The notes beneath the pieces are model-generated. The model searched no databases and was not told where the DNA came from. It saw only the letters and a program-made list of their open reading frames with translations. The position numbers were made by a program, and so were the translations under genes. From Scenedesmus sp. PABB004 (Eukaryota), in NCBI GenBank assembly GCA_014905635.1, contig JABVCE010000008.1, positions 1,364,001 through 1,428,000 on the forward strand: 64,000 nt of DNA, read 5' to 3'. Positions 25,226 to 46,882 of this stretch are shown in pieces. Position 1 is the stretch's first letter, and each line of letters begins with the position of its first letter.

Positions 25226-28200
25226 CTACCGACGCAGCTGCGTGCCGCGCCAGGTGCGGCGGAAGGCGGCCGCGCCGCCGCCCGGGCCCGCGCCCGCGCC
25301 TGCGCCACCGCCACCGCCGGCCGCCGCGAGCTTGGCGGCCGGCACGCTGGCGCCACCGCCGGCCCCCTCCTCGGCCAGGAACTGCGCGACTGCCGCGCCG
25401 CCGACCGCGGTCGCGGCGGGGCCGGGGCGGCGCGCAGTCGCGGGCGAGGCGCGGTTGTCGAGGCCCGGCGACACCGCGTCCGCGCCTGCGGCGGCGCCGC
25501 GCTGCCCGGCGCCCCGCGACGGCGTGAACAGGCGCAGCAGGCCGGCCGCGGGCGACGCCTTGCCGCCCGCCGCGGCTCCGCGCTCGGCGGCGCCGAGCGG
25601 CGCGGCCGCGCCCGGCGCGTCCTCGGCCGCCCCGGCTGTGTCTGGCGTGACCAGGTCAACCTCCTCCTCAGCAGCCCCCACGGCGGCGCGCCGCGACTGC
25701 GGCGTGGCCTCGCCGTCGGCGGGCGACCCGATGCCGGCCGAGCTGCCCGCCCTGCGCGCGCCTGCTGCCGCGGTGCCGCCCGCGCTGGCGGTGCTGCCGG
25801 GGCTGGGTGCCGCCCAATCCAGCTGCTGCGGCGGCGCCGCCGCCCCGCGGCGTGGCCGCGGGCTCTCTCCCCGGCTCGCCAGCGAGCAGGGGCTGCTGCT
25901 GCGCACGCTGGCGCTGGCGCTGCTGGACGCCCCCTCGTCCGCACTGGCGGCGCTGTGCGATGCCGACTCGCTCCGCCTCCGCGGCCCTGGGCCCCCGCGC
26001 TCGTCGCTGCAGCTGCCGCTCTCGCCCGCACCACACCCCACGCCCTGGCAGCCCTGCGGCTCCGGCGTCTGCTGCTCCGGCGCCTGCTGCTGCGCGCCCG
26101 GCGGCGGGTCGCCGGCGCCATCGCCGGCGTCGCCGCCGCCGAGCGTGTGCGGCCGGGTGCCCGTGGGCGTCGCCGGCAGGCGGTCGAGCAGCGACGCCGC
26201 CAGCGCCTCCGACAGGCTCGCCGCGTCGGCCATGAGGCTGTGCACCTGCAGCGCGAGGTGCTCCTTGCAGCGCAGCTTGTCGGCCGCCAGCTTCTGGACG
26301 CTGCTCTGGCGGCTGGCCTCCAGCTCCGCCTCGCTGCGCGCGCGCAGCTCCGCGAGCGTGTCGGCGTGCGCCACGCGCTCGTCGGCCGCGGCGCGCTGCA
26401 GCGCCGCAACGCGCGCCTTGCCGGCGTCGAGCGCGGCCTGCCACTGCGCGCGCTCCGCCGCGGCCTGCGCGCCGAGCGCCGCGGCCTGCTCTGCCGCGGC
26501 GGCGCGCTCCGCGTGCAGCTGGCGCTGCAGCTCGGCCGCGCCCTGCTCGGCGGCGGCGCGAGCGGCGCGCTCCTCCACCAGCGCCTGCGCCAGCGCCTCG
26601 CGCTCGCGCGCCTGCTCCGCCAGCTGCTGCTGCATCGCCGCGGCCGCGGCGCGCTGCTCGTCGCACGCCCGCGCCGCTGCGCGGGCCGCGTCGCCCTGCG
26701 CGCCCGTCTGCTGCCGCAGCTCGCCGCAGAGGCTGTGCAGGGCCAGCAGGCCGCTGCTCGCCTCGTGCAGCAGGCCCAGGCCGGCCTGCTGCGCGGCGGC
26801 GTCGCGCGCCGCACGCCCGTGCAGCTGCTGCAGCGCCGCGCGCAGCTCCGCCGCCTCGCGCGCCGCCGCGGCCGCTTCGTCCGCCCAGCGCCGCTCCCTA
26901 GCCTCCTGCATGGCGGCGGCAGGGTGGCGCGCAGGGCTCGAGCCGCCGCCGCGTGGTGTGCGGATTCGCAGCCCGCCGCCCGCGCGCTGCGCGCGCGCGC
27001 GCGCACCGCATCGTCCTGCAGCTCCGCGTACGCCGCCTCCACCGCGACGAGCTGGCGCGCGAGCAGGTCGTCGGGCGCGGCGCGGCCCTGCGCGAGGCTG
27101 AGCGCGTCGCTCAGCTCCTCCACCTGCATCTGCAGGCGGGCGATGAGCTCGTCCTTCGGTTCTCGGTTGACCACCGGTGTGTTGACCACCGCGCGCGCCA
27201 TCTCGGCAAAGCGCAGCGTCTCCTTGGTCTCCTGGAGGTCGGCGCGCGCGGTCGACACGCAGCCGACGACCAGCAGCCGGCTGTTGCCGCCGCCGAGCGC
27301 GTCCTGCAGGCGCAGCGTGAGCTTGGAGTTCCTGCGCGCCGCGGCGCGGCGCAGCAGCGACCGGGGCGGGCGCGCGCGTCGCCGGGCGCGTCGCCGCGCG
27401 CGGCGCGCACGCCGCCCTGCCCTGCCCGCGGGCGCGCGGCGCCGCCGCACCGGTACGTCGCGACGCGGCCGCCCCGGAACACCTCCTCGATCACCGTCTT
27501 AAGGTGGCAGAGGCTGCGGTTGATCAGGCCCGCCTCGCGCGCCTCCGCGCCGCTGCGCTTGATGTTCTCGCTGCCCGCCAGGTCCACCAGGTACAGCTTC
27601 CTGCACCGCAACGCGCGGCGGCGGCGCGCGGCAGCCGGTCGGCGCGGCACAGGCGCGGCAGAGGGGCGCGGCGCGCAGGCGGGCAGGGCTGCCTGCCGTG
27701 CTGCCGCCGCCGGGTTGCTTGCCGCCGCTGTTGGCCGCACCCGATGAGGTAGGTGCTAACCGGCGCCACCCCCGCGTCGCTGCCGCCGTCGCTGCTGGCC
27801 ACCGCGCCGCGCGGCGTGTCGGGCTCCTCGCTGCCGTCGCCGCCGCGCGGGCTCGGGGTCCCGCCCGCGGGGCTGCCCGCGCCGCTGCCGGGCGCGCTGC
27901 CGGCCGCGCGCAGCGTCACGCACTGCTCCAGCGTGATGGTCACGATGGCGTGGCTGCGGCTGCTGCGGTCGTTGATGCACGTCGCCGCGGTGCGGCGCTT
28001 GCGCAGCGTGCGCGCCACGAGCTCCTTGAGCTGCGCCGCGCTCGTGACGGGCACCTCGCGCCGGCTGTACTTGGCGCGCGGCGACGACGACGACGACGAC
28101 GCGGCGCCGGCGCTGGCGGCCGCCGCCGCGAGCTGTGGCGCGCGCGGCGGCGCCGCGCCCGGCCGCCGGGCGCCGGCCGCGGCGCCGCAAGCGGCCTCCG

Positions 28201-29073
28201 CCTCGCGCGCCGCCGCCACCGCAGCCGCCTGCTCCCTGACCGCCAGCAGGTCGGTGAATCGCTCCTGCGCGCCGGGGCGGCGCCGGTCCGCCGCCGGCGG
28301 GGGCGGCCGCGTGTCGCGCGCGCCGGCGGCTCGCGCGCGCAGCACGGCGGTCGGCGCCCGGCCAGCCAGCCGGGGCAGGCGCGGGCGCGGGCGCGGCGGC
28401 GCACCGAGTAGAGCTCTTCGACCGACACCGTCACGCCGCAGCGCCGCGGCTCGTAGCGCGCCGGCGAGAAGAGCTCATCGATCGCCTCGTGCACCAGCCC
28501 CGGCGCGCCGCCGCCGCCCAGCACGGTGTGCGTCTTGCCGCTGCCCGACGCGCCTGCGCGGCGCCGCCGGGCAGCGGCGCGCGGCTCGGGCGCAGCGCGC
28601 GCGGCGCGGCGCGGCTCGGCCGCAGCGCGCGCGGCCTCGGTATGAGGCGCGTGGCGCAGTCCTCGCGGGGGTTCTCACCGTAGGCGAAGACGGTGGCGTT
28701 GAGGCCCTGGTACAGCCCCGCCACGAGCGGGCGGACCTCATCGCCAAACAGCGAGTCGGCGGCGCGCCAGACGTAGATCGCATCGGCCTCAAACACCCGG
28801 CCCTCCTTGCCCGGCTGCTTGCTGGGCAGCAGCACCTGCACCGGGGCCGCGGCCCGGGGTGGCCCGCATGCGCCCGCGGCGGCGGTCGGCGGCAGGTTCG
28901 GCGGTTGCAGCGGGCGCGGCGGCGGCGCCGCGCGCAAGACTGCTCGCCTGGCCGGGGTTGTGCAGCAGAAGGTCCGTCCCCAGCGCCTCCTCCTCGCCGG
29001 GCGGCGTGGGCCGGGCCTTCAGCACGACCCGAGCACGACTGGAGCGGCCGCCGCCGCCGGCGCTGGACGGCAT
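25226..29073 (-). CDS. Kinesin motor protein (N-terminal motor, coiled coil, low-complexity tail), ~7 exons
   Basis: NATVFAYGASGSGKTHT P-loop, NDRSSRSH switch I, LVDLAGSE switch II, YRNSKLT, ETKETLRFA. Confidence 0.95.
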
Positions 29074-29382: not shown

Positions 29383-30913
29383 TCACTTCCTGGCCTTGCC
29401 CGCCTGCACGTTCTTCTCTTTCTGGATGAGAACGCTGAACGTGCCCACGACCTCGGGGTGCTGCGCGCGCGGCAGCGGCACGCGCGGGCGGGCGGGCGGG
29501 CGGGCGGGCGGGCGGGGGGAGCGTCAGCGCACCCCTGCGGAGCGCCGCTGGCCGCCGGGCCGCCGATCCCGCCGCCGGGGCCCCGCCGCCGCGCGCCGCA
29601 CCAGGCGGACGCTGCACTCGTACGTCCCCAGCGCCTTGATGTCCGGCACCTCCAGCTCCAGGTCGGCGATGCTGCGCCCCGTCTGCTGGTAGATCGCGTC
29701 GACGATCTCCTGCTTGGTCACGCTGCGCGCAGCGCGACGGCGGCGGCGGCGCGTTGCAGGGCGGCGCGTTGCAGGCGCACGCCCGCCGCCGGCGCGCGCA
29801 CGCTGCGGCCCCCCGCCCGGCGGCGCTGACCCATTGCCAGCGCGCACCTGCCAAAGAGCTGGTCCTTGTCGCCCGCCTTCTTCTTGAGCGCAAACTTGCC
29901 GATCGTGGCCAGCGCGTTGGCAAACGCCTGCGCCTGGGCCTTCTCCTGCGGGGCGGTGAGCGCAGGCGGCGAGAGTGCCGCGCGCGTGAGCGCGGGCGCA
30001 GGCGGGCGCCCTCGGCGGCGCGCGCCGGCCGCCGGCGCGGGCGGCGCGGGCGCGCGGGCGCGGGCACCCTGCCGCGCGGACCTCCAGCTTGGAGCGCAGC
30101 GCCGCCTCCTTCTGCTTGCGCAGGTCCCTGCGCGCGGGGCGGGCGGGCGGGCGGCTCAGCGCGCCGTCAGGGCGGCGCTGCCGGACGCGGCTGCCTGGCC
30201 GCCGGCCGGCCGCTGCCGCCGCGTGGCCCCGCCCCGGGCCGCCGCCGCGCTGGCGCGCGGCCCCGCCCCGGACGGCCGCGGCGGGCGCGGGCGGCGCTGC
30301 CACGGGCGGCGCTGCGGGCGCGGGCGCTCACTCGAGGATGCTCGCGTTTGCGACCTTCGCGACGCCATTCGGGAGCAGGAAGTTGCGCCAGTAGCCGATC
30401 GGCACCGTCAGCAGCTGCCCCTGCGCGCCGAGCTTGTCGACGTCCTCCAGCAGGATGACCTGCGCGCGGGGCGGGAGGCCGCGGCTCCGACCTGGCGCCC
30501 GCGCGCGCGGCCGGCGGCAGCGCGCCGCCAACGACGCTATTGCCGCTGCGCGCCGCGGCGGCGACAGCCCGCGCCGCGGCCGCGCTGGGCGCGTGCTGCG
30601 GCCGCCCCACGAGCTCCGCGCCGCCGGGCCGCCGCAATGAGGCCGCCCCGGGGCGGGGCAGCAGCAGCTCGCGGGCTGTGGCTGCTGCCGCCCTTCTCCC
30701 AAGCCCGCGGCGCGGGGCCGCACCTTCTGCTTCTTCTGCACGCGCTTGTTGGCGGTCACCACCAGCGCGCCGCGGCTGCCCGCGCCCGGGCGCACCGCGC
30801 CGGCGCTCCGCTGCGGGGCGGCCAGCCATTGAGTCGGCGGCGGCCCCGCGGCGCCCGCGCAGCAGGGGCAGGCGCGCCGCGCTCACCACGCCGCTGCGCT
30901 GCATCGCCTGCAT
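29383..30913 (-). CDS. PRPL9: Plastid 50S ribosomal protein L9 (bL9c), 7 exons
   Basis: [11 protein letters not shown]...[22 protein letters not shown]...VRLHPEV; transit peptide. Confidence 0.95.
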
Positions 30914-32870: not shown

Positions 32871-33977
32871 TCACTTCTGCGGCAGCCCCTCCTGGCTGCC
32901 CGCGGTGCCGGTCTTGACGCGGCTGCCTGCGTCGCCGCCGCCGCCGCCGCCCGCGGCCGCGCCGCCGCCGCCGGCGCCGCCGTTGGCGGCCTGCCAGCGC
33001 GTGATGTGCGCGGATATCGAGTCGGCGAGCTGCTCGGCGGTGAAGTTTTTGCCGTAAAAGGTCACAAACTCGCCCGCGGGGTCGAGGAGGTACATGATGA
33101 TCGAGTGGTCCACCAGGTAGTCCGCCTCGCTCTCGCCGGTCTTGTGGAAGTAGACGCGGAACGCCTTGCTCGTCGCGCGCACCGCCTCCTCGCTGCCCGT
33201 GAGGCCGACCAGGCGCGGGTGGAACTCGCGCACGTACGCCTTGACCGCGCGCGGGCTGTCGCGCGCGGGGTCGACGCTGATGAACACCGGGCGCACCTGG
33301 TAGCCGCCGGTCGCCGCCTCGATGCGGTCCAGCGCGGCCGCGAGCTTCTCGAGCTCGTCGGGGCAGATGTCGGGGCAGTGGGTGAAGCCGAAATAGAGCA
33401 CGCTGAACGCGCCGCGCAGGTCCTCGTGCGTGAACGGCCGCCCGTCCTGGTCGATCAGCGCGAACGGCCCGCCGACCGCGGCCTTGCCGACGACCTCCTG
33501 GCTGCGCTGCATCATGCCCTCCACCTTTTGCTGCGCCTTGTTCTGCGCCGCCGCGACGACGGCGAGGAAACAGCCGATGCCGACGAGCATGCTGTTGAAG
33601 GTGATCGGCGACTTGCGCCCCGCGCCGCCCCCGCCCGCCGCCGCGCCGCCGCCCGCGCCGGCAGCGGCTCCGGCGCCCGCGCCGCCGCCGCCGGCAGCAA
33701 AGCCGCGCGCGAGCGCGAGCGGGCGCGCCCGCGCCGCCGCCGCTGCGGCGCCGCCCGCGCGGCAGCGGGCGCCGCCCGCCGCGAAGCCGCGCGACAGGCC
33801 ATCCCAGCAGCCCAGGCCGATGGGCCGCTGGGCGGCCAGGCCGCGCCAGGCGGGGGCCCAGGCGCCGCCTGCGGCGGGGCCGGCCGCCCGCCACACGCCG
33901 CTGCTGCTGCTGCTCTGCCCTGCCGCCACGCCTCGGCACGCCAGCCGCACGGCAGCCAGGAGCGCCGAGCGCGACAT
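32871..33977 (-). CDS. SCO1: Mitochondrial copper chaperone SCO1/SenC, intronless
   Basis: GGPFALID, YFGFTHCPDICPDEL (CxxxC), FISVDPARD, YLVDHSIIMYL. Confidence 0.96.
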   Translation of the reverse strand: MSRSALLAAVRLACRGVAAGQSSSSSGVWRAAGPAAGGAWAPAWRGLAAQRPIGLGCWDGLSRGFAAGGARCRAGGAAAAAARARPLALARGFAAGGGGAGAGAAAGAGGGAAAGGGGAGRKSPITFNSMLVGIGCFLAVVAAAQNKAQQKVEGMMQRSQEVVGKAAVGGPFALIDQDGRPFTHEDLRGAFSVLYFGFTHCPDICPDELEKLAAALDRIEAATGGYQVRPVFISVDPARDSPRAVKAYVREFHPRLVGLTGSEEAVRATSKAFRVYFHKTGESEADYLVDHSIIMYLLDPAGEFVTFYGKNFTAEQLADSISAHITRWQAANGGAGGGGAAAGGGGGGDAGSRVKTGTAGSQEGLPQK

Positions 33978-34241
33978 GGCGCGGACGCGATGCAACCGGC
34001 GCCGAGCCGCAGGCAGCCCGGGATCGCGCGATAGGGCCGGCGGATGCGGGCGCGGTCACGTCGCAGCGATCGCGGCGAGCGCGTGCGCCTGCGGGCGTGG
34101 GCGCGGTCCTGGATGTCTGGCGGCGCTGAAATGGCCACGCGCGGCGCGCGCCCACATGCGCTCGCGGCAGAGAGGCGGCGCGGCGCGCTGGAGCGGTGCA
34201 GCGCGCCGCAGGCCCTGCGCGGTGGGTGGCGTCAACGCTTA

Positions 34242-34425: not shown

Positions 34426-35670
34426 TCACATGCGGCCCTCGGTCATCTTCTTGGCCTCGTACTCGCGCGTGCCTGCGGCGGCGCGGCGCGCGCGGGCTGA
34501 CCGGCCAGGCACGGCCCGCGCGCCGCGCCACCCGCGCAAGCCAACCAGTCACGCGCCGCGCGTTGAGCCGCCCGCGCAGTGTGCGCGGCGCGTGCGAGCA
34601 GGGCGCGCCGCCGCCCACCTGGCAGGGCCTCTTTGATCTTCTGGCCCACCGTCTTGTGCTCGCCCACGCCGGGCTCGCCGACGCCGGCGCCCATCACGCC
34701 CGCGCCGCCGTGCGCGTGGTGGCCGGGCTCGTGGCCGCCCAGGCCGCCCGCGCCGGTCACGCCGTGCGTGGGGTGCACCGCCTGCGCAACGCGGTGCTCC
34801 TCGGTGCCTGGCGGGGGGCAGGGGAGGGACGGGGGCGGCGGTCAGCGCGGCGGCGGCGGCTCGGGCTGGGCCAGCAGGCCCGCGCCGGCGTGCAGCCCGG
34901 CAGCGCCCGCCGCGGCTCACCGGGGATGGCGCTCTTGAGCTGCTCCACGCCGCGGTGCGCAGCCGTCATGCCGTGCGTGGCCTCGTGCCTGGCGGCGGCG
35001 GCAGCGGCAGCGTGAGCCCGAGCGCGCGGCACGGAGCAGGCAACGTGCAGCGCTGAGCGCGCGGGCGGCGTGCAGCGCGTGGGCGCGCACGCGTGGGTGC
35101 CCGGGATGGCCTCCGCCACGCGCTCGCCCATGCCCGGGTGGCCGGCGGTGTGGCCGGCGGTGTGGCCCATGCCCAGGCCGCCGCCGGTGCCGCCGATGAC
35201 GCCCGCCTGCTGCATGCGGTGCTCCTCGGTGCCTGCGCGGGCGGGCGCGGCGGCGGTCAGGCGGGGTCGGGCGGCGGCCGCGCGCCAGGCCGGCGGCGCG
35301 GTGCGGTGCGGTGCGCGGCACGCACCAGGGATGGCGGCCTTGACCTGGGACACGCCCTGGTGCGCGCCCGTGACGCCGTGCGTCGCCTGGTGCCTGCGCG
35401 CGGGCGCATGCGTGGGCGCGCGGGCGGCGGTCAGCATCGATGCTGACCGCGTGCGCGGGGCCGGCCTGCGCGGCGGCATGCACGCGCACTCGTGCGTGCC
35501 GGGGATGGCCTCCATGACGCGCTCGGTCAGGGGCTTGTTCGGCTGCACGCCTGCGCGTGCGCGAGTCGGCGGCGGGCGACGCGTCGGCGGCGCGCGGCGC
35601 GCGGCAGGCTGTGCGCGCGGCCGCGCCCACGGTGTCGGGGCGCACCCTGCTCGTGGCCGATGCGGTCCAT
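34426..35670 (-). CDS. Dehydrin/LEA-like hydrophilin with five K-segment-like repeats, 7 exons
   Basis: Gly/His/Thr-rich; repeats ERVMEAIPGT, SQVKAAIPGT, ERVAEAIPGT, EQLKSAIPGT, KTVGQKIKEALPGT. Confidence 0.75.
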
Positions 35671-36038
35671 GGCGGCGCGGCGGCGCGGGCGCGCGGCAGG
35701 CGCAGCGGTCGGCGGCGGGCCTGGTGTGCGTTTGTTGGTCGCGGGAGGTCGCTGGTGGCGTCGCGGTGTGCTGGCAGGACGGGTACTGTGTCGGGGGCGC
35801 GGGCGGGGCCGCGATTAAGAGGCGGCGACGGGGCGACGGTGACGCGCAGCTCGGGCGCCGCCCGCGTGACTGCCAGCTCCGCCTGCCTTACGAAGCTGCC
35901 CCTGCCCCGCCCGACCGAACGACCGCCCGCGACCGCCCGCCCCCCGCCGCCCGCCGCTCGCGACCGCTCGCGACCGCTGACCGCCGACCAGCTCCCGCGC
36001 TGCGCTCGCTGCTGCGGAACACCTGCCCAGCTCTCCCC

Positions 36039-36418
36039 CTACTTGTTGTAGGCGGTCCCGTAGCACTTGACCTCACCGGTGAGGCCGCTGCGGCCAAACG
36101 TGTAGCTGATGGAGTGCAGCTCGACGCCGTGCAGCGCGCTCGTGTCGGCGTGCTTGTAGACCTTGGCCATGATCGGCCTGCGCCCGCGCCGCGCGGCGCT
36201 GTCAGCGGCGGAGCCGCCGCGCGCGCGCGCAGCTGCCGGCGGCGCCGCGCCGGCAGGGCCAGGTCCAGCGCGCGCCGCAGCTGCGCCGTGCGCCGGGCGC
36301 GGCGCGCACAGGGTCACGACGCCAAAGCCCTGCAGCGCCAGGTCCAGCGCGACCTCGCCGCGCACGCCCGCGCGCGTGAGCTCCATGTCGCAGTCCCACG
36401 CCACCTCGTACGACGCGC

Positions 36419-36450
<32 letters not shown>

Positions 36451-37319
36451 CGCTCCGCCACGCGCAGCGCGCGCGGCGCGCTCCACTCCTGCGCCGCGGG
36501 CCGGGTGCGGGGAGCGCGGGGTCGGCGCGCGCTGCCGGCGGGCCCTGCGCGGCGGCAACGCGGCGCGCGCGCGCCCCACCTGGCCCTCCCGCATCGGCTG
36601 GTACTGGTCAGCGACCTGCGGCAGGCAGCAGCACAGCGCCCCCGCGCCGGGCTCCAGCACCTCCGCCTGGCGGTGCTTGACCTCCGCCTCGGCCACGCTG
36701 CGCGGCGCGGCGCGTGCGGCGCGGCGCGGGCGCGTCGGCGCGCGCGCGACGGGCTGCCAGCCAGGCTGCCGCCGCGCTCGCGCCGCGCGGCGCACGTGAG
36801 GGCCACCGCGGGCGTCGTGGTGATGCTGATGAGGTAGGTGAGGTCCTGCCGCAGCTTGACCGTGGTGTCGGCGCTCGCGAAGCGCGTGCCTGCGGCGGCG
36901 CGTGCGCGTGCGCGGCGTCGGACAGGCAGGCGCGCGCCCGGGGCCGCGTGCGGCGCCGCACCGTCGGACTTGCAGTGCGCCGTCTTCCTGCTGTCGCGCT
37001 CCGCAATGGACACCGACACCCTGCGCGGCGCGAGGGGCGGCGCAGCAGCAGTCGGCGGGCGGCGCGTGCCGACTGCTGGCGGCGCCACCGCCCGTGCGCA
37101 GCTGCTGGCAGTCGTGCAGGGGCTTTCTTAGGAGCGTGGCAGCGCTCAGGCGGGCCGTCCAGGCCCCTCCCGGCAGCGCGGCGCGTCCGGCGCGGGTCTG
37201 CGGCGGCGCGCGCACTTGACCTCCTTCAGCCCGCCCTCGCCCTTCGCACGCGCGGCCTGGCCTGCTGGCCGGACCACGCAGGTGGCTGCGCCGCTCTCGA
37301 AGCCCAGCGCCGCGCTCAT
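36039..37319 (-). CDS. CNRIP1/CRIP1a-like protein (CB1 cannabinoid receptor-interacting protein family), 6 exons
   Basis: Spliced VSVSIAERDSRKTAHCKSDGTRFASADTTVKLRQDLTY and [41 protein letters not shown]...GVELHSISY follow the CNRIP1 pattern as recalled. Confidence 0.75.
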
Positions 37320-37675: not shown

Positions 37676-39980
37676 CTACGCCGCCGCGGCCGCGCCGCCG
37701 CCGGGGCTGGCGGGGTCAAAGACCTCCGCGTCGAGGTCGCCCTCCTGGTACACCAGGAAGCCGCTGCGGCGCCGGTTGGCGTTGTAGCACGCGCGGTCGC
37801 CCGGCGGGCAGGGCGCGCACGCCTTGCACGCGAGCGGGCACTTGCCGGCGGCGCCGAGGTCGCCCAGCTGCGGCGGCGCGGCGCCGCGGCGCCGCTGGGC
37901 GTGGGCCGGCCGCCGCGCCGGCCAGCCGCCGCGCCCGCCGCCGCCGCCGCGCGCCCCTCGCACCATGTACTTTGGGTTGCGCTCGCACTCCCCGCTCGCC
38001 GCCCAGCTGGCGCACTCGGGGTGGTGGTCCGCGCACACGCCCGGGTCGACGCTCTCGTACGGCTCGGTGTCGCCAAACGTCTCGGCTGCGGCGCCGCAGC
38101 GACGGCGGCGGCGGCGGCGGCGGCGGCGAGGTCGTGCGCCGCGCGGCGCGCCGCTCGCGCCGCCGTCCGCGCGCAGCGCCCGCTGGCGGCCAGCGCTGGC
38201 CGCTCGGTGCGCGCTGCCGCCGCCGCCGCCGCGCACGTCTGAAGGGGCGGCCGTGGATCCACTTTGTGGCCGTCCACTTGACGCCCTTCAGCACGGGGCA
38301 CCCCGTGTGCATGCTGAACGCGTCCTCGTGGCCGTCCGGCCGCGACGACCAAAACATAAACGCGTCGCCCTGCGCCGCGGGGCGCCGCGCGCGGGCGGCG
38401 CGCTGCTCGCGCGGGCGGTGCGGCGCCCGGGCGCGCGCGGCACCGAGGCGCGAAAGCGCGGCGGCGGCGGGCGCGGCGCACCTTGCGCGGCTTGAACGCG
38501 ACGTGCCCGCGCGCGCAGGGCGACCACGGGCCGAGGCGCTCCGGCAGGCTGCTGTCCACCCAGTCCTCGCTCTCCGGGAACGCCGTCTCGCCGCCCTCGA
38601 TGACGTCTGCAGCGGCGCACACCGCGGGTCGGGCGGCGCGCCCCCGCGGCGGGCTGCGCCGGCGCGCGCGCGCGCGCACTGCCCCCTCCCCACTCGGCCC
38701 ACCGCGCCCTGCCCCGCCCCGCCCCGCGCGCACCGTTCAAATAGAGCAGCACCGTCGCGACGCGCGGGCCGGCGAGGTCGTCGGACAGGCTGTCCATGTG
38801 CGGCCTGTACTGCTGGCCCAGGCCGTACCGCAGCACCTGCGCGACCGCCGCCGCTGAGCCGCTGAGCCGCTGAGCACACCGCGGCGGTGGCGGCGGGGCC
38901 CGAGGCGCGCGGGGCGCGCAGCGCAGCGCAGCGAGGGAGGGGCGCGGGAGGGGGCCGGCGCGCCGCGCTGCGGGCTGGCGCGCCGGTGGCGCGCCTGCAT
39001 GTCCTCCGCGTTCACCGCCGGGATCTGCGCCCAGCGCGCCACGCGCTCCTCGATCGCCGTCACCACGCGGTCCGCCTTGCGCCTGCGCGCGTGCGCGCCG
39101 CGCGCGCGCTCCGCGGCACGCCGCCGCCCTGCCGGCTGCCGCCGGCCCGCGCCGCGCACACCCCCTCCCTGGCCCCGCGCGCCCCCTTGCCCCCCGCGCG
39201 CCCCCCGCGCGTGCTATGCGCTCACTTGACAAAGGTGCCGTAGCTGGTTCGATAGTCATCCAGCACGTTGTCCCCGCCTGCGCCCACCACGGTCGAGCGC
39301 TTCATCTGCGCGCCGCACGACAGGACAGGGCAGGGGCGGCCGCGGGCTGGGGCGGGCGCTCCCGCCGCCGCCGGCGCGGCCGCCGCAGGGCGCGCGGGCG
39401 CTCCCGCCGCCGCCGGCGCCGCGGCGCGCGCGGGCGCGCGGGCGGCGGCCGCGGCGCGCGCGCTGGCGCGCACCATCGGCGCGGCGAGCTTCTTGATGTG
39501 CTCCGCCTCGTCGTCGCTGAGGAAGTTGTGGTACACAAACGCGCGCGGCCGCCAGGACACCACCTCAACCCTGGCCGCGCAGCGGGCGGGCGGCGCGGCG
39601 GCGCGCGGTCGCGGGCGCGCCAGCGGGGGAGGGCACGCGCGCGCCGCGCGCCGCTGCGCGCGGGGCGGCCGGCGCGGCAGCAGGGCGGTCGCTGCGCCGC
39701 CGCGCGCGCACACCACTTCTTCTTGCCGTCGCTCGCGCCCTGCGGCGCGCGGCGGGGCGGCGTTGGCGGAGCGGCGGGCACGCGCGCCGCCCGTGCGGCC
39801 CTGCGCGCTGCGCCGCCGCTGCCGCACCGGCTGGTAGCTCTCGCCCCTCCAGCCGACAAAGGCCTCGTCCGGCTCGGGCTGCGGCGCCTTGCGCGCGGCG
39901 GCCCCGGCGAGCAGCAGCAGGAGCAGCAGCGCCGACCCGCTGCCGGCGCCGCCGCGCCGCCGCCGCCGCGCCGCCCGCAT
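37676..39980 (-). CDS. P4H: Prolyl 4-hydroxylase with C-terminal ShKT domain, ~10 exons
   Basis: [27 protein letters not shown]...[53 protein letters not shown]...CPLACKAC. Confidence 0.96.
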
Positions 39981-40802: not shown

Positions 40803-43800
40803 ATGGGCATGGCGCGGGTGCTCACCGCGCTGGCGCTGCTGGGCGCGGCGTGCGCCGCCGGCGCCGCGGCGCAGGCGGCGCGGGCGCCGAGCATCGACAT
40901 CCTCGCCCAGCCTGGCTGCGACGTGGGCGCCAGCCTGACGCCGGGCATGCAAGACTGCGTGATCGACGAATTGATGGGCTCCAACGGCACGCTGAGCTTC
41001 ACCTTCAACGTGGGGCCGAAGGCCAAGCACGCCGTTCTCTTCACCCTGCGCTCGGTCGGGGGATCCGCCGTCATGTGAGCCCCCCGCGCCGCGGGCGCGC
41101 CGGTACGGGACGCACCAGGCCGCCGGCCGCCGCCGTGGCCCGCGGCGGCGCGGCGCGGGCGCGCGCCGGGCCGGCACGGCCCGCGGCGCGCCGGGCGCTG
41201 CTGCGCCGCGACGCCGGCCGGCCGCGGCGCCGCGTGCCGCCGGCGCCGCCGCGGGGCGCACGCATGGTCGCGCCACACCCGCCGGAGCCACACACGCCGC
41301 GGGGCAGGCCGGCTTTGCGCGCGTCACTCGGCGGCGTCACCCGCGCGGCGCCGCTGCTGCTGCTGCGAGCAGCCGGCCGCCCCCGGCCGCCCCGGGCGCG
41401 CCGCCGCCAGGGGCGCCGCGCGGCGCGGCCCGGGGGAGCGCCGCGCCCGGCCCCGTCCCCGCCCGCGGCGCGGGGGCGCGCGGGACGCGCGGGGCGCGCC
41501 CCTGGCCCCAGTCGCGCGCCGCGCCGCGCCGAGCGCGCCGCGCCCCGCCGCCGCGCAGGCGCCTGTTCAACTCGGGCCAGGGCGTGTACAACGGCCAGGT
41601 CGTGTACTTCAACGACGCGGTGACCGAGAGCTTCCTGCGCGTGCCCGCGAGCGAGCTGCCGGCGGGGCAGTACACGCTCGTCGTGCAGGGCATGGGCGGC
41701 GCGACGCAGAAGCTGCTGCTCTATCTCCGGGTGCGCCCAGCCGGCGGGACCCGGCGCGCGCGCGGGGCGCCCCGCCAGCCGCCTGGCAGCGGCGCCGGCA
41801 GCGGCCGGCGCCCGCGCCCGCGCGCGCCGCCGCGGCCGGGGCGGCCCGCCCGGCGCGCCCCCGCCCGCCGCGCGCGAACCCTGCCCGGCCGCGCCGCGCA
41901 GGTGCAAACGCCGCCCGCCTCCGTGCGCCTCGCGGACGAGGACCGCACGGCGATGCTCGCCCTCATGCGCGACTGCTGCCCCGCGGGCAGCAGCAAGAGC
42001 CCGATGGCGCCCGAGGTCTGCAGCAACCTGTGAGCGGCCGCGCGCGGGGCCGGCGCGGCGCGCCGCGCGCCGCGCCGCCGTCCGCGCGCCGCGCCCGGCC
42101 CGGCCGCCCACGCTGCCGCCGCGCGCGCGTCGCAGCTTGCCCGGCGCACTGAACGCGAGCAAGGCGGAGGATGACCTGTGCAACGTGGGCGACTTTGTGT
42201 GCGACGACACCGGGCACCTGCAAAAGGTCGACTTCAGCAACGCCGGTGCGCGCGCCGCCGCGGCGCCGCGGCCGCGGCGGCGCTGCTGCCGCGGCGCGCG
42301 CTCGGGGCGCCGCGCCGCCGCCCACGCCGCCCACGCCGCCGCCGCCGCCGCTGCCGCCGCGGCTCCCGCGGCGCAGGGCTGGTGTGCCCGGGTGGCTTCC
42401 CGGCGGCGTTTGGGCAGCTTCCGGCGCTGGAGACGCTGATGCTGCGCTACAACGACTTTGGCGGCGACACACTCGACAACGTCGCGGCGGTGCTCTCGCG
42501 CACCAAGACGCTGCGGCGGCTGATGATGGGCGCGACAAACGTGACCGGCACCATCCCCTGCGCCCTCGTCGAGGACCATGCGCTGCAGACGCTCATGATC
42601 TCCATCAACAAACTCTCAGGCAGCCTGCCCGACTGCGTGCTCGCGGTGCGCGCGCCGCGGCCGCCGCGCCGCGCGCCGCCCCGCCCAGCGCCGCCGCCGC
42701 CGCCGCCGCGCGCCGCCGCGCGCCGCCGTGCCGCGCTGAGTCCCGCGCCGCCGCCGCCGCCGCCGGCGCCGGCGCCGCCGCCGCAGAGCCCCAGCCTGAT
42801 GGAGCTCTACATGAGCCGCACGACGCTCACCGGCGCGCTGCCCGACGCGTTCACGACCGACAGCCAGCTGCGCGTGTGGTACGCGATCAACAACGACCCC
42901 GTGACCGGCGAGCAGCCGGGGCCGGGGTTCAGCGGCGAGATCCCGCCCTCCATCTCGAGCGCCGGCTCGCTGCAGTTTGTGGAGCTCAGCGGGCACCAGC
43001 TGACCGGCGGCGTGCCGGCGCTGCCGGACGGCATCAAGATGTTTGAGTCGCAGGGCAACCGCCTCGACGGCGGCATCGCATGTGCGGCGCGCCGCGCTGC
43101 GCCCGCGCCCGCGCACGCGCGCGCGCCGCGCCGCCTGGCGCCGCTGCCTGGGCCGACGCGGCGCTGCCGCCGCCGCCGTCCGCAGCGCCGCTGCCGAGCA
43201 GCCTCGTCTACTTTGACGTGAACAACAACACGCTCGGGGGGACGCTGCCCGACTTTGGCGGCGCGGGCGAGCTCACGCTGCTCGACCTCAGCCGCAACCA
43301 ACTCTCGGGTTCGCTCCCCGCGTCGCTCGGCGACGCCGGCGGCGCGCTCGTGTACCTCGACGTCTCCAGCAACCTGCTCGGCGGCGAGGCGGGGCCGGGC
43401 AAGCTCTGGGACGGCGCGCCGCAGCTGCAGTACCTCTTCCTGCAGGAGAACAACCTCCAGGGTGCGCGGCGGCGCCACAGCCACAGCCGCCGCCGCGGCG
43501 GCCGCGGACGCAGTGGCGGGCCCCGCCCCGCCGCGCGGCGCTGCCGCCCCGGGCCGCCGGCCGACCGGCCGCGCCGCCGCCGGCCGCGCCGCCGCCGCCG
43601 CGCCGCAGGCTCGCTGCCGGCGTCGCTGGCGGCCAGCAAGACGCTGACGGCGCTCAACCTGGCGAACAACATGCTCGACGGCGACCTCGTGGCCTTTGCC
43701 GACGCGGTCAACCCGCCCGCCAAGGCCTCGCGCCAGGCGGGGCGCCGCCTCGCGGCCGCGCCCGCGGCGCTTAACGGCGGCGCGGCCGTCGCGCGCAGGC

Positions 43801-45384
43801 TCTTTGGCGGTAGTGAGGAGCGCCCCGCGCCGCAGCCCCTGGGCTGGGCGACCGACCGGGCCAACCTCGTGGCGCTGGCGACGCACACGACCGCCGACGC
43901 GCGCCGCCGGCTGCAGCAGGCCGGCGCGGCCGCGCCCGCGCTGGCCGTGCCGCCCGCAGTCGCGCCCGTGGCGGCGACGCCGGCGGCCGCGGCGGCGGCG
44001 GCGGTGGCCGACCCCGTGATCGCGTCGACGCCCGCGGTGCTGCCGAGCGTCCCGCTGCCCACGACGCCCGAGCTGCCCTCCGCGCCCGCCGCGGGCGGCG
44101 CCACGACGACGCTGGTCAACCCCGCCGCGGCGGCGGCCGACCCGGAGCCCGCGGTCGCGCCCGTGCCGGCGGCGGTCGCGGCGCCGGCCAAGCCCGCGCC
44201 CGCCGCGCCCGCCGCGGCGGCCGCGGCGGCGGCGGCGGCGGCGGCGGCCGAGCCCGCGGTGCTGCTGGAGCCGGAGCCGACGCAGCCGGCGGCCGGCCCG
44301 CAGGCGCAGGAGCCGGCCGCCGAGGTGCCCGGCTCCTCGGCGGGCCCGCCCGCGGCCGGCGGCATGGCCGGCGGCATGGCCGGCGGCCCGGGCGCCCAGG
44401 GCGGCCAGGGCGGCGCGGGCGGCCAGGGCGGCGGCGCGGCGCGCAACGACATCGGCATGATGGACGTCCCCTCCTCCTCGGCGCTCGCCGGCAACTCGCT
44501 GCTCTACCTCAACGCCAGCTACAACGCGCTCACCGGCGCCGTGCCGCCGGCGCTGGGCGGGCTCGAGATGTTCCGCTCGCCCGCCAACAGCAGCGACCCG
44601 TACGACGTGTACGTGTACAACCGCGGCGGCCCCGACCGCACGCTCGACCTCACGCACAACCGCCTGTTTGGGGAGTTTCCCCTCTTCCTCATCGAATCGC
44701 CGCCCGACCTCTCCGACGCGTGCCTCTGCACCACAACCTTCAACGTCACCGACGGCAACGCGCTCTTCTGCCCCACCAAGGCCAGCCTCGCGGGCGTGAC
44801 TACGAGCAAGGCGCAGGCCGCGGCGCTCGCCGACGCGGGGTACACGTGCCTGCTGCCTGGCGCAAACGGCGCGACCTCGCCGGTGCGCGCGAGCGCGCGC
44901 GTGCCTGCCCTGCTGTGCCGCCGCTGCGCGCGCTGCCACCGCCGAGCGCGCGCCGCCGCCGCCGGTGCCGCAGGTGTCGCTCGCCAAGTACCTCTCCAAG
45001 CCCGCCGACTGGCTCACCGAGCTGCCGGCCGAGAGCTCGGTCGTGCGCGAGGCCGCGACGCGCGCGCCGCGCGAGGGCAGCCGCGCGGCCGGCTACGGCG
45101 CGGCGCGCGGCGGCGGCGGCGGCGGCGGCGCGGTGAGCGGCGGCGCGATTGCGGGCATCGTCATCGGCGTGCTCGGCGGCCTCGCCATCCTGGGGAGCCT
45201 GGCCTACTTTGTGGGCTACAAGCGCGTGTGGCAGGTGCACCGCGCGACGTCGTTCAAGCGCGGCCAGATACCCGACGGCCCGCCGCTCGGCGGCTACCCG
45301 GGCGGCGCCGCGCCGTACGGCGGCGCCGGCGCGGCGCCGACGAGCGGGTTTGACATTGAGACGCCCCACCCGCAACGCCTGTGA
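40803..45384 (+). CDS. LRR receptor-like protein 1: signal peptide, N-terminal beta-rich domain, Cys cap, plant-type LRRs with large insert, single TM, short tail, no kinase
   Basis: LxxLDLSxNxLSGxLP repeats; TM AIAGIVIGVLGGLAILGSLAYFVGY followed by KR; stop at 45384. Confidence 0.9.
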
Positions 45385-46000
45385 GCTGTGGGGCGCGTGT
45401 GCGGGGGCGGGGGGGGGGGGTGCACTCGTAGCGGCTCGCAGCATCGCCAACGCACGCGCGCCGGCGGGTTTTTTGGCTGAGCAGGCCTGGCGGACCACGG
45501 CGGCCGTGTGACCGCTCTCACTTTCGTCACTTGCTCTGCTCCGGCGAACGGCTCTGCTCGCGGAATCGAAGCAAGTGGAAAGCGGCAGGGCTCAGCGCGC
45601 GCCGCCGCAGGGCTCAGTGCCAGACCGCAGGGCTCGGCCGGGCGGCTCGTGTGCAGCCGCTCCAGCTCGCTCCAGAGCAGCCCGGGCAGAGCCGCACGCA
45701 GGGGCGGCACGTAGGGGCACGCTCCAGCAGGGGCAACGGCGGCGGCAGCAGCGCCACTCGCGCAAGAGCAGCTCGCTGAGCAGGACCGGCCTGCGTCCGC
45801 GGCAGAGCAGGCTGAGGCCGCAGCAGTGGAGCAGCCGCGCCAGCAGCCCACCGACCGGTCGCTGCGTCGTCGCCCGGCAGCGGCGCCGCTGCTGCAGGCA
45901 GCGGCGCTGGCGGAGCCAGCTTTGCTGGCTGCGACCAACAGCAGCAGTGGCGCTGCCGGATCAGCTCTGCGGTGGTGACGCCCGCGCGCCAGCAGCGGCG

Positions 46001-46882
46001 ATGCCGGGCGCGCCGGCGCCCGCGGCGGCGGCACAGCCCCCAGCGTCGCCGCGCGTGGTCGCGGCGACGCGCGACGTGGTGGCCGTGCACAAGCCGCCGG
46101 GGCTGCCCTTCCACTCGCTCGCGCCCGGCGCGCCGGGGCTGCTCGCGGCGCTGCGCGGCGCGCCAGGCCTGCTGGCGGGCACGCCGGCGGCGGGCGCGCG
46201 GCTGCACGCGGTGCACCGCCTCGATACGGAGACTTCGGGCCTCGTGCTCTTTGCCACGTCGGCGCACGTCGCGGGGCTGCTCGCGCGCGCCTTCCGCGAG
46301 CGCCGCGTGCATAAATATTACGCCGCGCTGTCGGCGCGGCGGCCGCGCAAGAAGATGGGCGCGGTCGTCGGCGACATGGCGCCCGCGCGCCGCGGCAGCC
46401 ACAAGCTCCTGCGCAGCGCGGCCGACCCCGCGGTCACGCGCTTCTGGAGCTGCGGCGTGCCCGGCGCCGCAGCCGGCCCGCCGGGGCTGCGCCTCTTCCT
46501 GCTCAAGCCCGCGACGGGGCGGACGCACCAGCTGCGCGTGGCGATGAAGGCGCTCGGCGCGCCCATCCTCGGGGACGCGCGCTACGGCGGCGCCGGCGCG
46601 CCGCGCATGTACCTGCACGCCGCCGCGCTGCGGGTGCAGCTGCCCGGCGGAGGCTGGTTCCAGGCGGTCGACCCGCCCCGGGGCGAGCTCTTCGCCGACC
46701 CCGCCGTCGCAGCCCTGCTCGGCGGCCTGCTGCCGCCGACGCTCGCCGACGAGCCCGGGCCCTGGCTCGCCGACCACCCCGCGCGCAAGCTGCTCTGCTC
46801 CGACCCGACTGCCGGCACGTCAGCGGCGGACTCGGACTCGACCGCCGGGAGCTGGGCTCTTGGCAGTGAGGTGACGGGCTGA
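46001..46882 (+). CDS. RluA-family pseudouridine synthase, intronless
   Basis: HKPPGL, VHRLDTETSGL (catalytic Asp), TGRTHQLRV, GAPILGDARYG, MYLHA. Confidence 0.94.
   Translation: MPGAPAPAAAAQPPASPRVVAATRDVVAVHKPPGLPFHSLAPGAPGLLAALRGAPGLLAGTPAAGARLHAVHRLDTETSGLVLFATSAHVAGLLARAFRERRVHKYYAALSARRPRKKMGAVVGDMAPARRGSHKLLRSAADPAVTRFWSCGVPGAAAGPPGLRLFLLKPATGRTHQLRVAMKALGAPILGDARYGGAGAPRMYLHAAALRVQLPGGGWFQAVDPPRGELFADPAVAALLGGLLPPTLADEPGPWLADHPARKLLCSDPTAGTSAADSDSTAGSWALGSEVTG

Follow-up and report, generated by a model that had tools for sequence, protein, structure and literature searches.

Here we analysed a stretch of 64,000 nucleotides from Scenedesmus sp. PABB004 (NCBI GenBank assembly GCA_014905635.1, contig JABVCE010000008.1, positions 1,364,001 to 1,428,000 of the forward strand; hereafter the window, with positions counted from its first letter). 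On its minus strand we found a gene, running from 37319 to 36039, whose product of 230 residues almost certainly belongs to the CNRIP1/CRIP1a family, judging from its own sequence and from those of its relatives. The passages of the literature on which we draw treat CRIP1a as a partner of the cannabinoid receptor CB1 in vertebrates, with a cellular role that is still unclear (PMC8446797, PMC6832298), and describe it as expressed in all vertebrates (PMC8446797). The presence of a distant relative of CRIP1a in a green alga means therefore that the family is older than the cannabinoid receptor. When the intact CNRIP1 gene is joined into a single statement with a role of its product as a lipid carrier and with S-acylation of an exon-encoded loop, we consider that statement to have a little better than an even chance of being right; the carrier role and the loop are weighed separately below.

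Family membership of the encoded protein

A search with the unspliced frame, in which exons 2, 3, 5 and 6 (listed in the next section) stand in phase, returned one protein, P0001 (E = 5e-28), which has 224 residues and comes from a EukProt transcriptome assembly. A phmmer scan with P0001 then gave 59 proteins at E <= 0.001, including P0002, a protein of 207 residues from Hariotina reticulata. Comparisons with the Pfam family CNRIP1 (PF15043, gathering cut-off of 27 bits) were made for the read-through frame 36042-37127 of the minus strand, for single exons and for the relatives, while the spliced product was scored with a purpose-built profile. CNRIP1 was the sole match of the read-through frame (E = 7e-5; 22.9 bits) and it came from exon 3, which taken alone yielded E = 0.0014 and 18.7 bits and was the sole part of the window to match by itself. 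The closest relatives clear the cut-off, with 67.6 bits for P0001, 60.5 for P0002 and 51.2 for P0003. Among the longer phmmer matches, CNRIP1 was found in 22 of 27 proteins at E <= 0.01, and 17 of these 22 scored above 27 bits; the remaining five were P0017, P0029 and P0033, which matched no family, P0040, with a weak unrelated match, and P0059, with ankyrin repeats. The short fragments gave CNRIP1 in 11 of 11 cases at E <= 0.1, and four of these scored more than 27 bits.

The spliced product itself reached 118.5 bits over residues 30-228 against a profile built from 14 distant members, all of them above the Pfam cut-off and with the close group left out. Profile searches against the sequences of the Protein Data Bank (PDB) led to the rat protein: profile A1, made from 19 sequences, matched 7q2t (E = 8e-21) and 6wsk (E = 5e-20), covering residues 9-163 of the 164-residue chain, and the control profile A2, made from the five closest algal proteins, matched only these same two entries (E = 5e-4 and 6e-3, respectively). 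P0001 alone also had CRIP1a as its first match among PDB sequences, though only at E = 0.24. In the A1 alignment Trp133, Arg145 and Gly158 (P0002 numbering) are invariant across the 19 family members. The top three clusters in the ESM Atlas were CNRIP1 proteins of chordates and nematodes (cosine 0.91-0.92); the recognition value of 2040 lies under the tool's mark of 2300, and we treat this match, which brought in no taxa beyond animals, as a lead only.

An earlier note on this DNA, made from the letters and a list of open reading frames, had proposed the CNRIP1/CRIP1a identity and named a comparison of the spliced protein with the CNRIP1 profile as a way of checking it. The Pfam scores of the relatives, P0001 and P0002 included, the 118.5-bit score of the spliced product on the distant-member profile and the matches of A1 and A2 to the rat chains all support that identity. 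In its alignments with the rat chain of 7q2t, HMMER pairs algal with mammalian residues in the way that the note had proposed.

Gene model and support for the splice joins

The exon model was built from the GT donors and CAG acceptors that the minus strand offers between positions 37319 and 36039. Six exons and five introns give a frame of 693 nucleotides, that is, 230 codons and a stop, with no internal stop codon. The ATG is the first in its open frame. Its A lies at 37319, and the last base of the TAG stop at 36039. The features are as follows.

37216..37319, minus strand: exon 1, residues 1-34 and two bases of codon 35; ATG at 37319-37317, GTGCGC donor at 37215; codes for an N-terminal extension ahead of the CRIP1a-like domain
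36962..37020, minus strand: exon 2, residues 35-54; CAG acceptor at 37021, GTGCGG donor at 36961; first beta strand and start of the conserved K-x-D-G-x-R-F motif
36796..36889, minus strand: exon 3, residues 55-85; core motifs RF...TTVKL...Y...P
36580..36697, minus strand: exon 4, residues 86-125, in a frame different from that of exons 2, 3, 5 and 6; one beta strand, then most of a subgroup-specific insert
36625..36633, minus strand: cysteine cluster of exon 4, TGC TGC TGC, Cys108-Cys110
36310..36488, minus strand: exon 5, residues 126-184; E-W end of the insert, (GA)4GG loop, conserved W-x-C...R...F-G strands
36039..36177, minus strand: exon 6, residues 185-230 and TAG at 36041-36039; conserved K-V-Y...H-G...Y strands and C-terminus
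36178..37215, minus strand: span holding introns 1-5, at 37215-37021, 36961-36890, 36795-36698, 36579-36489 and 36309-36178 (195, 72, 98, 91 and 132 nt, respectively)

The span given in the earlier note thus proves exact at both ends, from the A of the ATG to the last base of the TAG, and its count of six exons holds, the joined frame staying open for all 230 residues. The peptides that it had quoted likewise all occur in the translated product: KSDG|TRFASADTTVKLRQDLTY across the joint of exons 2 and 3, one more across the joint of exons 5 and 6, and GVELHSISY. The introns begin with GTGCG in four of the five cases and with GTGGGG in the fifth, and all five end in CAG.

We judged the joins against two relatives, the transcript-derived P0001 and P0002. 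The spliced product and P0002 are 59.9% identical over 207 columns (model residues 24-230 against residues 6-207 of P0002), and their alignment has no gap at any exon joint. When the read-through frame was compared with P0002 by BLASTP, a gap of exactly 24 residues appeared at intron 2 (72 nt) and one of exactly 44 residues at intron 5 (132 nt). Exon 4, taken alone, matched P0002 at E = 7e-10, exon 2 aligned with residues 17-37 of P0002, and the C-terminus of the model reached the last residue of that protein. The least-supported part is exon 1, which has a weak similarity to P0001 (E = 0.008; TCVV[RK]P...LKE[VL]); P0027, a database fragment of 84 residues, aligned to model residues 1-85. Past the H-G motif P0001 departs from both the model and P0002, and we read this divergence as a probable unspliced or alternative 3' end of the transcript.

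The DNA of the window has a GC content of about 78% throughout, and in such DNA long open frames arise in all six frames, which speaks for an annotation artefact; we weighed this explanation together with those of a pseudogene and of contaminating animal DNA. Against it, GC at the first, second and third codon positions of the coding sequence is 68%, 53% and 96%, which is the periodicity of true coding sequence in a GC-rich genome, and the five introns (588 nt in total) have 86% GC against 72% in the coding sequence. The six exons are all in frame and bounded by canonical splice sites. Because of the contrast between third and second positions, the 60% identity to the Hariotina protein without gaps at the joints, the intron-sized gaps of the read-through comparison and the separate match of exon 4, the gene is more than a product of chance. 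As for animal DNA, only about 18-20% of the residues are identical to those of the rat chain, composition and intron style are as in the rest of the window, and the neighbours are ordinary nuclear genes. Taking these results together, a pseudogene, an artefact or a contaminant is very improbable: the gene is intact and nuclear, and belongs to a chlorophyte with very GC-rich DNA. The green-algal origin assumed in the earlier note fits the nearest relatives, which belong to Scenedesmaceae and Selenastraceae. Polyadenylation-type motifs of the forms TGTAA, TGTAG and TGTTA were not found within 1.2 kb downstream of the stop.

In exon 5, at 36449-36420 (minus strand), a GC-rich repeat of hexanucleotide type codes for (GA)4GG, and the loop so formed exceeds its Hariotina counterpart by three residues. 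It may illustrate how a microsatellite can expand a loop where the genome is very rich in GC.

Fold and residues of the barrel

The fold, shown through the relative P0002, which is 60% identical to the product of the window gene, is the antiparallel beta-barrel of CRIP1a; the structural comparison with CRIP1a that the earlier note had called for was thus borne out by way of this relative. Compared with mammalian CRIP1a (PDB 6WSK and 7Q2T), the algal protein is about 18-20% identical to the rat chain and has 230 residues against 164, and it adds an N-terminal extension of about 30 residues, a cysteine-cluster insert, also of about 30 residues, that separates two strands, and a short Gly-Ala loop expansion.

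Residues of the barrel were mapped by hand through HMMER alignments, with the list of residues taken from passages of PMC8446797. Five of the seven lid residues of rat CRIP1a are kept in kind, with Ile38 as Val, Leu40 as Leu, Tyr46 as Tyr, Tyr89 as Trp and Ile105 as Val; Val23 of the rat protein corresponds to Ala. The rat structure also has a hydrogen-bond network that closes the gap in the barrel (Tyr145, Trp121, Thr119 and Glu161), which is a feature of that structure and not part of the Pfam definition of the family, and to which we return when weighing the proposed function.

An insert with a cysteine cluster

The earlier note had pointed to three adjacent cysteines in an inserted segment as a possible S-acylation site. 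The cysteines are indeed there (TGC TGC TGC at 36633-36625), and the cluster is conserved within a subgroup of the algal proteins. The insert has about 30 residues, most of them from exon 4, and lies between two strands. Among the stored database proteins that cover it, CC is kept at the cluster in all 12, and CCC or CCCC in eight. In the alignments the rat chain has no such insert, and neither do the proteins of Haematococcus, C. leiostraca, Acetabularia, Bryopsis and Caulerpa. The structural model of P0002 shows the insert as a loop of low confidence with a short helix (residues 81-100, pLDDT about 58-60).

Side-by-side CC and CCC runs in flexible cytosolic loops are typical of S-acylation, and the cluster, placed as it is in a loop predicted to be flexible, would most likely be an S-acylation site. 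A metal site or a redox or disulfide switch is the alternative. It draws on a further cysteine 7-9 residues upstream of the cluster (A-E-C-x-E-P), present in 11 of the 12 relatives and bringing the number to three or four cysteines within about 10 residues, and on another subgroup-specific cysteine just before K-S-D-G. However, the upstream cysteine is replaced by Val in the window protein and by Phe in P0029, so that a site with four ligands is not universal, and adjacent runs of this kind are what S-acylation typically uses; we regard a metal or redox site as unlikely. With S-acylation as the preferred reading, the Cys-Cys(-Cys) loop would, once acylated, anchor the protein at a membrane or serve to regulate it in algae of this subgroup.

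Relatives among green algae

Eight chlorophytes could be named as holders of the family: Hariotina reticulata, Monoraphidium minutum, Tetradesmus obliquus, Haematococcus lacustris, Chlamydomonas leiostraca, Acetabularia acetabulum, Caulerpa lentillifera and Bryopsis sp. The database records identified are the following.

Monoraphidium minutum: KAI8469088.1
Tetradesmus obliquus: WIA11379.1 and WIA31466.1
Haematococcus lacustris: KAL6764067.1
Bryopsis sp.: GMH33121.1
Hariotina reticulata: P0002

All the chlorophyte relatives are labelled hypothetical or uncharacterised, with neither a curated name nor a described function. The chlorophyte PF15043 proteins are the orthologues or close paralogues of the window gene, and they differ in their additions to the common domain. 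A group of Sphaeropleales type (P0001, P0002, P0003, P0016, P0028 and P0029) has the exon-4 insert and the cysteine cluster in all its members, whereas the proteins of Haematococcus, C. leiostraca and the ulvophytes lack the insert, those of the ulvophytes having a longer N-terminal extension. In the ulvophyte-type proteins P0041, P0045, P0046, P0057 and P0058 this extension comprises 60-90 residues with repeated L-x-R-[ST]-S-like motifs before the CNRIP1 domain, and these repeats might be phosphorylation or targeting sites.

The two Tetradesmus obliquus models (P0008 and P0078; WIA11379.1 and WIA31466.1) are truncated, with 103 and 154 residues against about 207-230 in full-length relatives. 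One of these fragments, P0008, bears the automatic UniProt name 'C2 NT-type domain-containing protein'. Pfam lends this name no support: it sees only CNRIP1 in the fragment (26.2 bits, E <= 0.1), and NT-C2 appeared in none of the 27 longer proteins at E <= 0.01. A fused form of the family is represented by P0048 and P0061, Logan records of 553 amino acids in which a complete CNRIP1 domain (profile positions 5-157) stands at the C-terminus, at residues 388-552.

Profile searches of protein databases scored only 8000 word-sharing candidates, and what they lack is no evidence of absence: within that scope, profile A3 gave five matches with no protein of Chlamydomonas reinhardtii or Volvox among them, and profile A1 gave 16 matches, none of them from animals.

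Several public algal proteins already bear a precomputed PF15043 label, and the occurrence of the family in algae is therefore latent in the databases rather than hidden. In the one library searched, CNRIP1 was not paired with Chlamydomonas, nor 'cannabinoid receptor interacting protein' with 'alga'; a search for CNRIP1 and cilia gave nothing relevant in titles or abstracts, and one for 'C2orf32' gave nothing structural or evolutionary by title. Discussion of algal CNRIP1 seems to be unreported, and the subgroup-specific insert with its cysteine cluster seems to be undescribed. The claim ought to stay modest, the family label being computable from public data and the field being small.

Possible function

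Chlorophytes are not known to have a CB1 receptor. According to a review, the green algal genomes sequenced by then had yielded no G protein elements (PMC3718340). A host that is without CB1 and, by surveys of other green algae, without G-alpha thus lacks both known partners of CRIP1a; if the protein carries a cargo, that cargo would have to be something other than CB1 or, as far as has been published, G-alpha. According to passages of the structural work on rat CRIP1a, the protein binds a myristoylated 9-mer of G-alpha-i with a Kd of 21 uM and leaves the unmodified peptide unbound, and its authors set CRIP1a beside Unc119 and PDE6-delta (PMC8446797). Unc119, PDE6-delta and RhoGDI, carriers of lipidated proteins, count among the known systems that come nearest.

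By analogy with rat CRIP1a, the hydrophobic interior of the barrel would take up the lipid group by which a partner is acylated or prenylated, and the algal protein would be a soluble chaperone or shuttle for that partner. The earlier note had suggested an ancient, receptor-independent carrier of lipidated cargo, which is a reasonable inference; taken by itself, we rate the carrier mechanism as plausible with somewhat less than an even chance. A different job for a true CNRIP1 member has also to be considered: ancestrally, the protein could have been a protein-protein adaptor, or a binder of a free hydrophobic ligand such as a fatty acid or a sterol, in the manner of NPC2-type sandwiches. Two observations speak against this, namely that the myristoyl group is needed for binding by rat CRIP1a (according to the same passages of PMC8446797) and that the alga keeps the hydrophobic positions of lid and core in the hand-made mapping, and we think an adaptor or free-ligand binder rather unlikely.

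Several points weigh against the joint statement of an intact family member acting as a lipid carrier with an S-acylated loop. With 22.9 bits, the contiguous DNA of the window falls short of the 27 bits that CNRIP1 demands, and Pfam matched nothing in exons 5 and 6 alone. The evidence for the fold is drawn from a relative and not from the window protein, and the insert is modelled at low confidence. In the hand-made mapping one of the four gap-stitching residues of the rat barrel is kept (Tyr145), and the other three are replaced (Trp121 by Ile, Thr119 by Leu and Glu161 by Thr); the side opening that has been proposed for entry of the myristoyl group may therefore be built differently in the alga. 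Finally, the carrier role of mammalian CRIP1a is itself only proposed.

A family member in algae that lack CB1 and, by surveys, G-alpha means that the fold and a conserved surface have been kept for some other purpose. In these organisms the purpose of CNRIP1 is not masked by receptor biology, and they are a place in which to seek its ancestral role. The widest version of our proposal is that CNRIP1, rather than being an accessory of cannabinoid signalling, is an old eukaryotic chaperone that binds lipid moieties, pre-dating animals and independent of CB1 and heterotrimeric G proteins, which in algae of Sphaeropleales type would have become an S-acylated carrier through an exon-encoded cysteine loop. 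In such a scenario the ancestral function of the human protein, which may operate even today, would be indicated by what its algal relative carries, be it myristoylated small GTPases or, as further examples, flagellar or membrane-signalling proteins. We offer this version tentatively and hold it to be more doubtful than probable.

Gene neighbourhood

The surroundings of the gene were scanned with Pfam from 27.5 to 46.9 kb of the window, in 120 stop-to-stop frames that had 110 residues or more. The following features were identified.

27527-28474, minus strand: piece of a kinesin motor (Pfam)
30331-30882, minus strand: ribosomal protein L9 N-domain (Pfam)
32874-34055, minus strand: SCO1/SenC copper-chaperone domain (Pfam, 161 bits, full profile 1-134, in one long frame)
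37676-39300, minus strand: upstream neighbour, with two 2OG-Fe(II) oxygenase pieces (25.9 and 19.5 bits, below the cut-off) and a C-terminal ShK domain (24.8 bits, cut-off 20.9)
42175-45350, plus strand: leucine-rich repeat (LRR) frames (Pfam)
45512-46879, plus strand: RNA pseudouridine synthase (Pfam)

Nothing suggests a functional link between these neighbours and the CNRIP1 gene. Open frames on the opposite strand over the gene (for example, 35016-36677 and 36160-36834) gave no Pfam match, and we took them as by-products of the GC content rather than as genes. The upstream neighbour looks like a prolyl 4-hydroxylase type of gene, going by its domain pieces, and the SCO1/SenC gene seems to consist of a single large exon.
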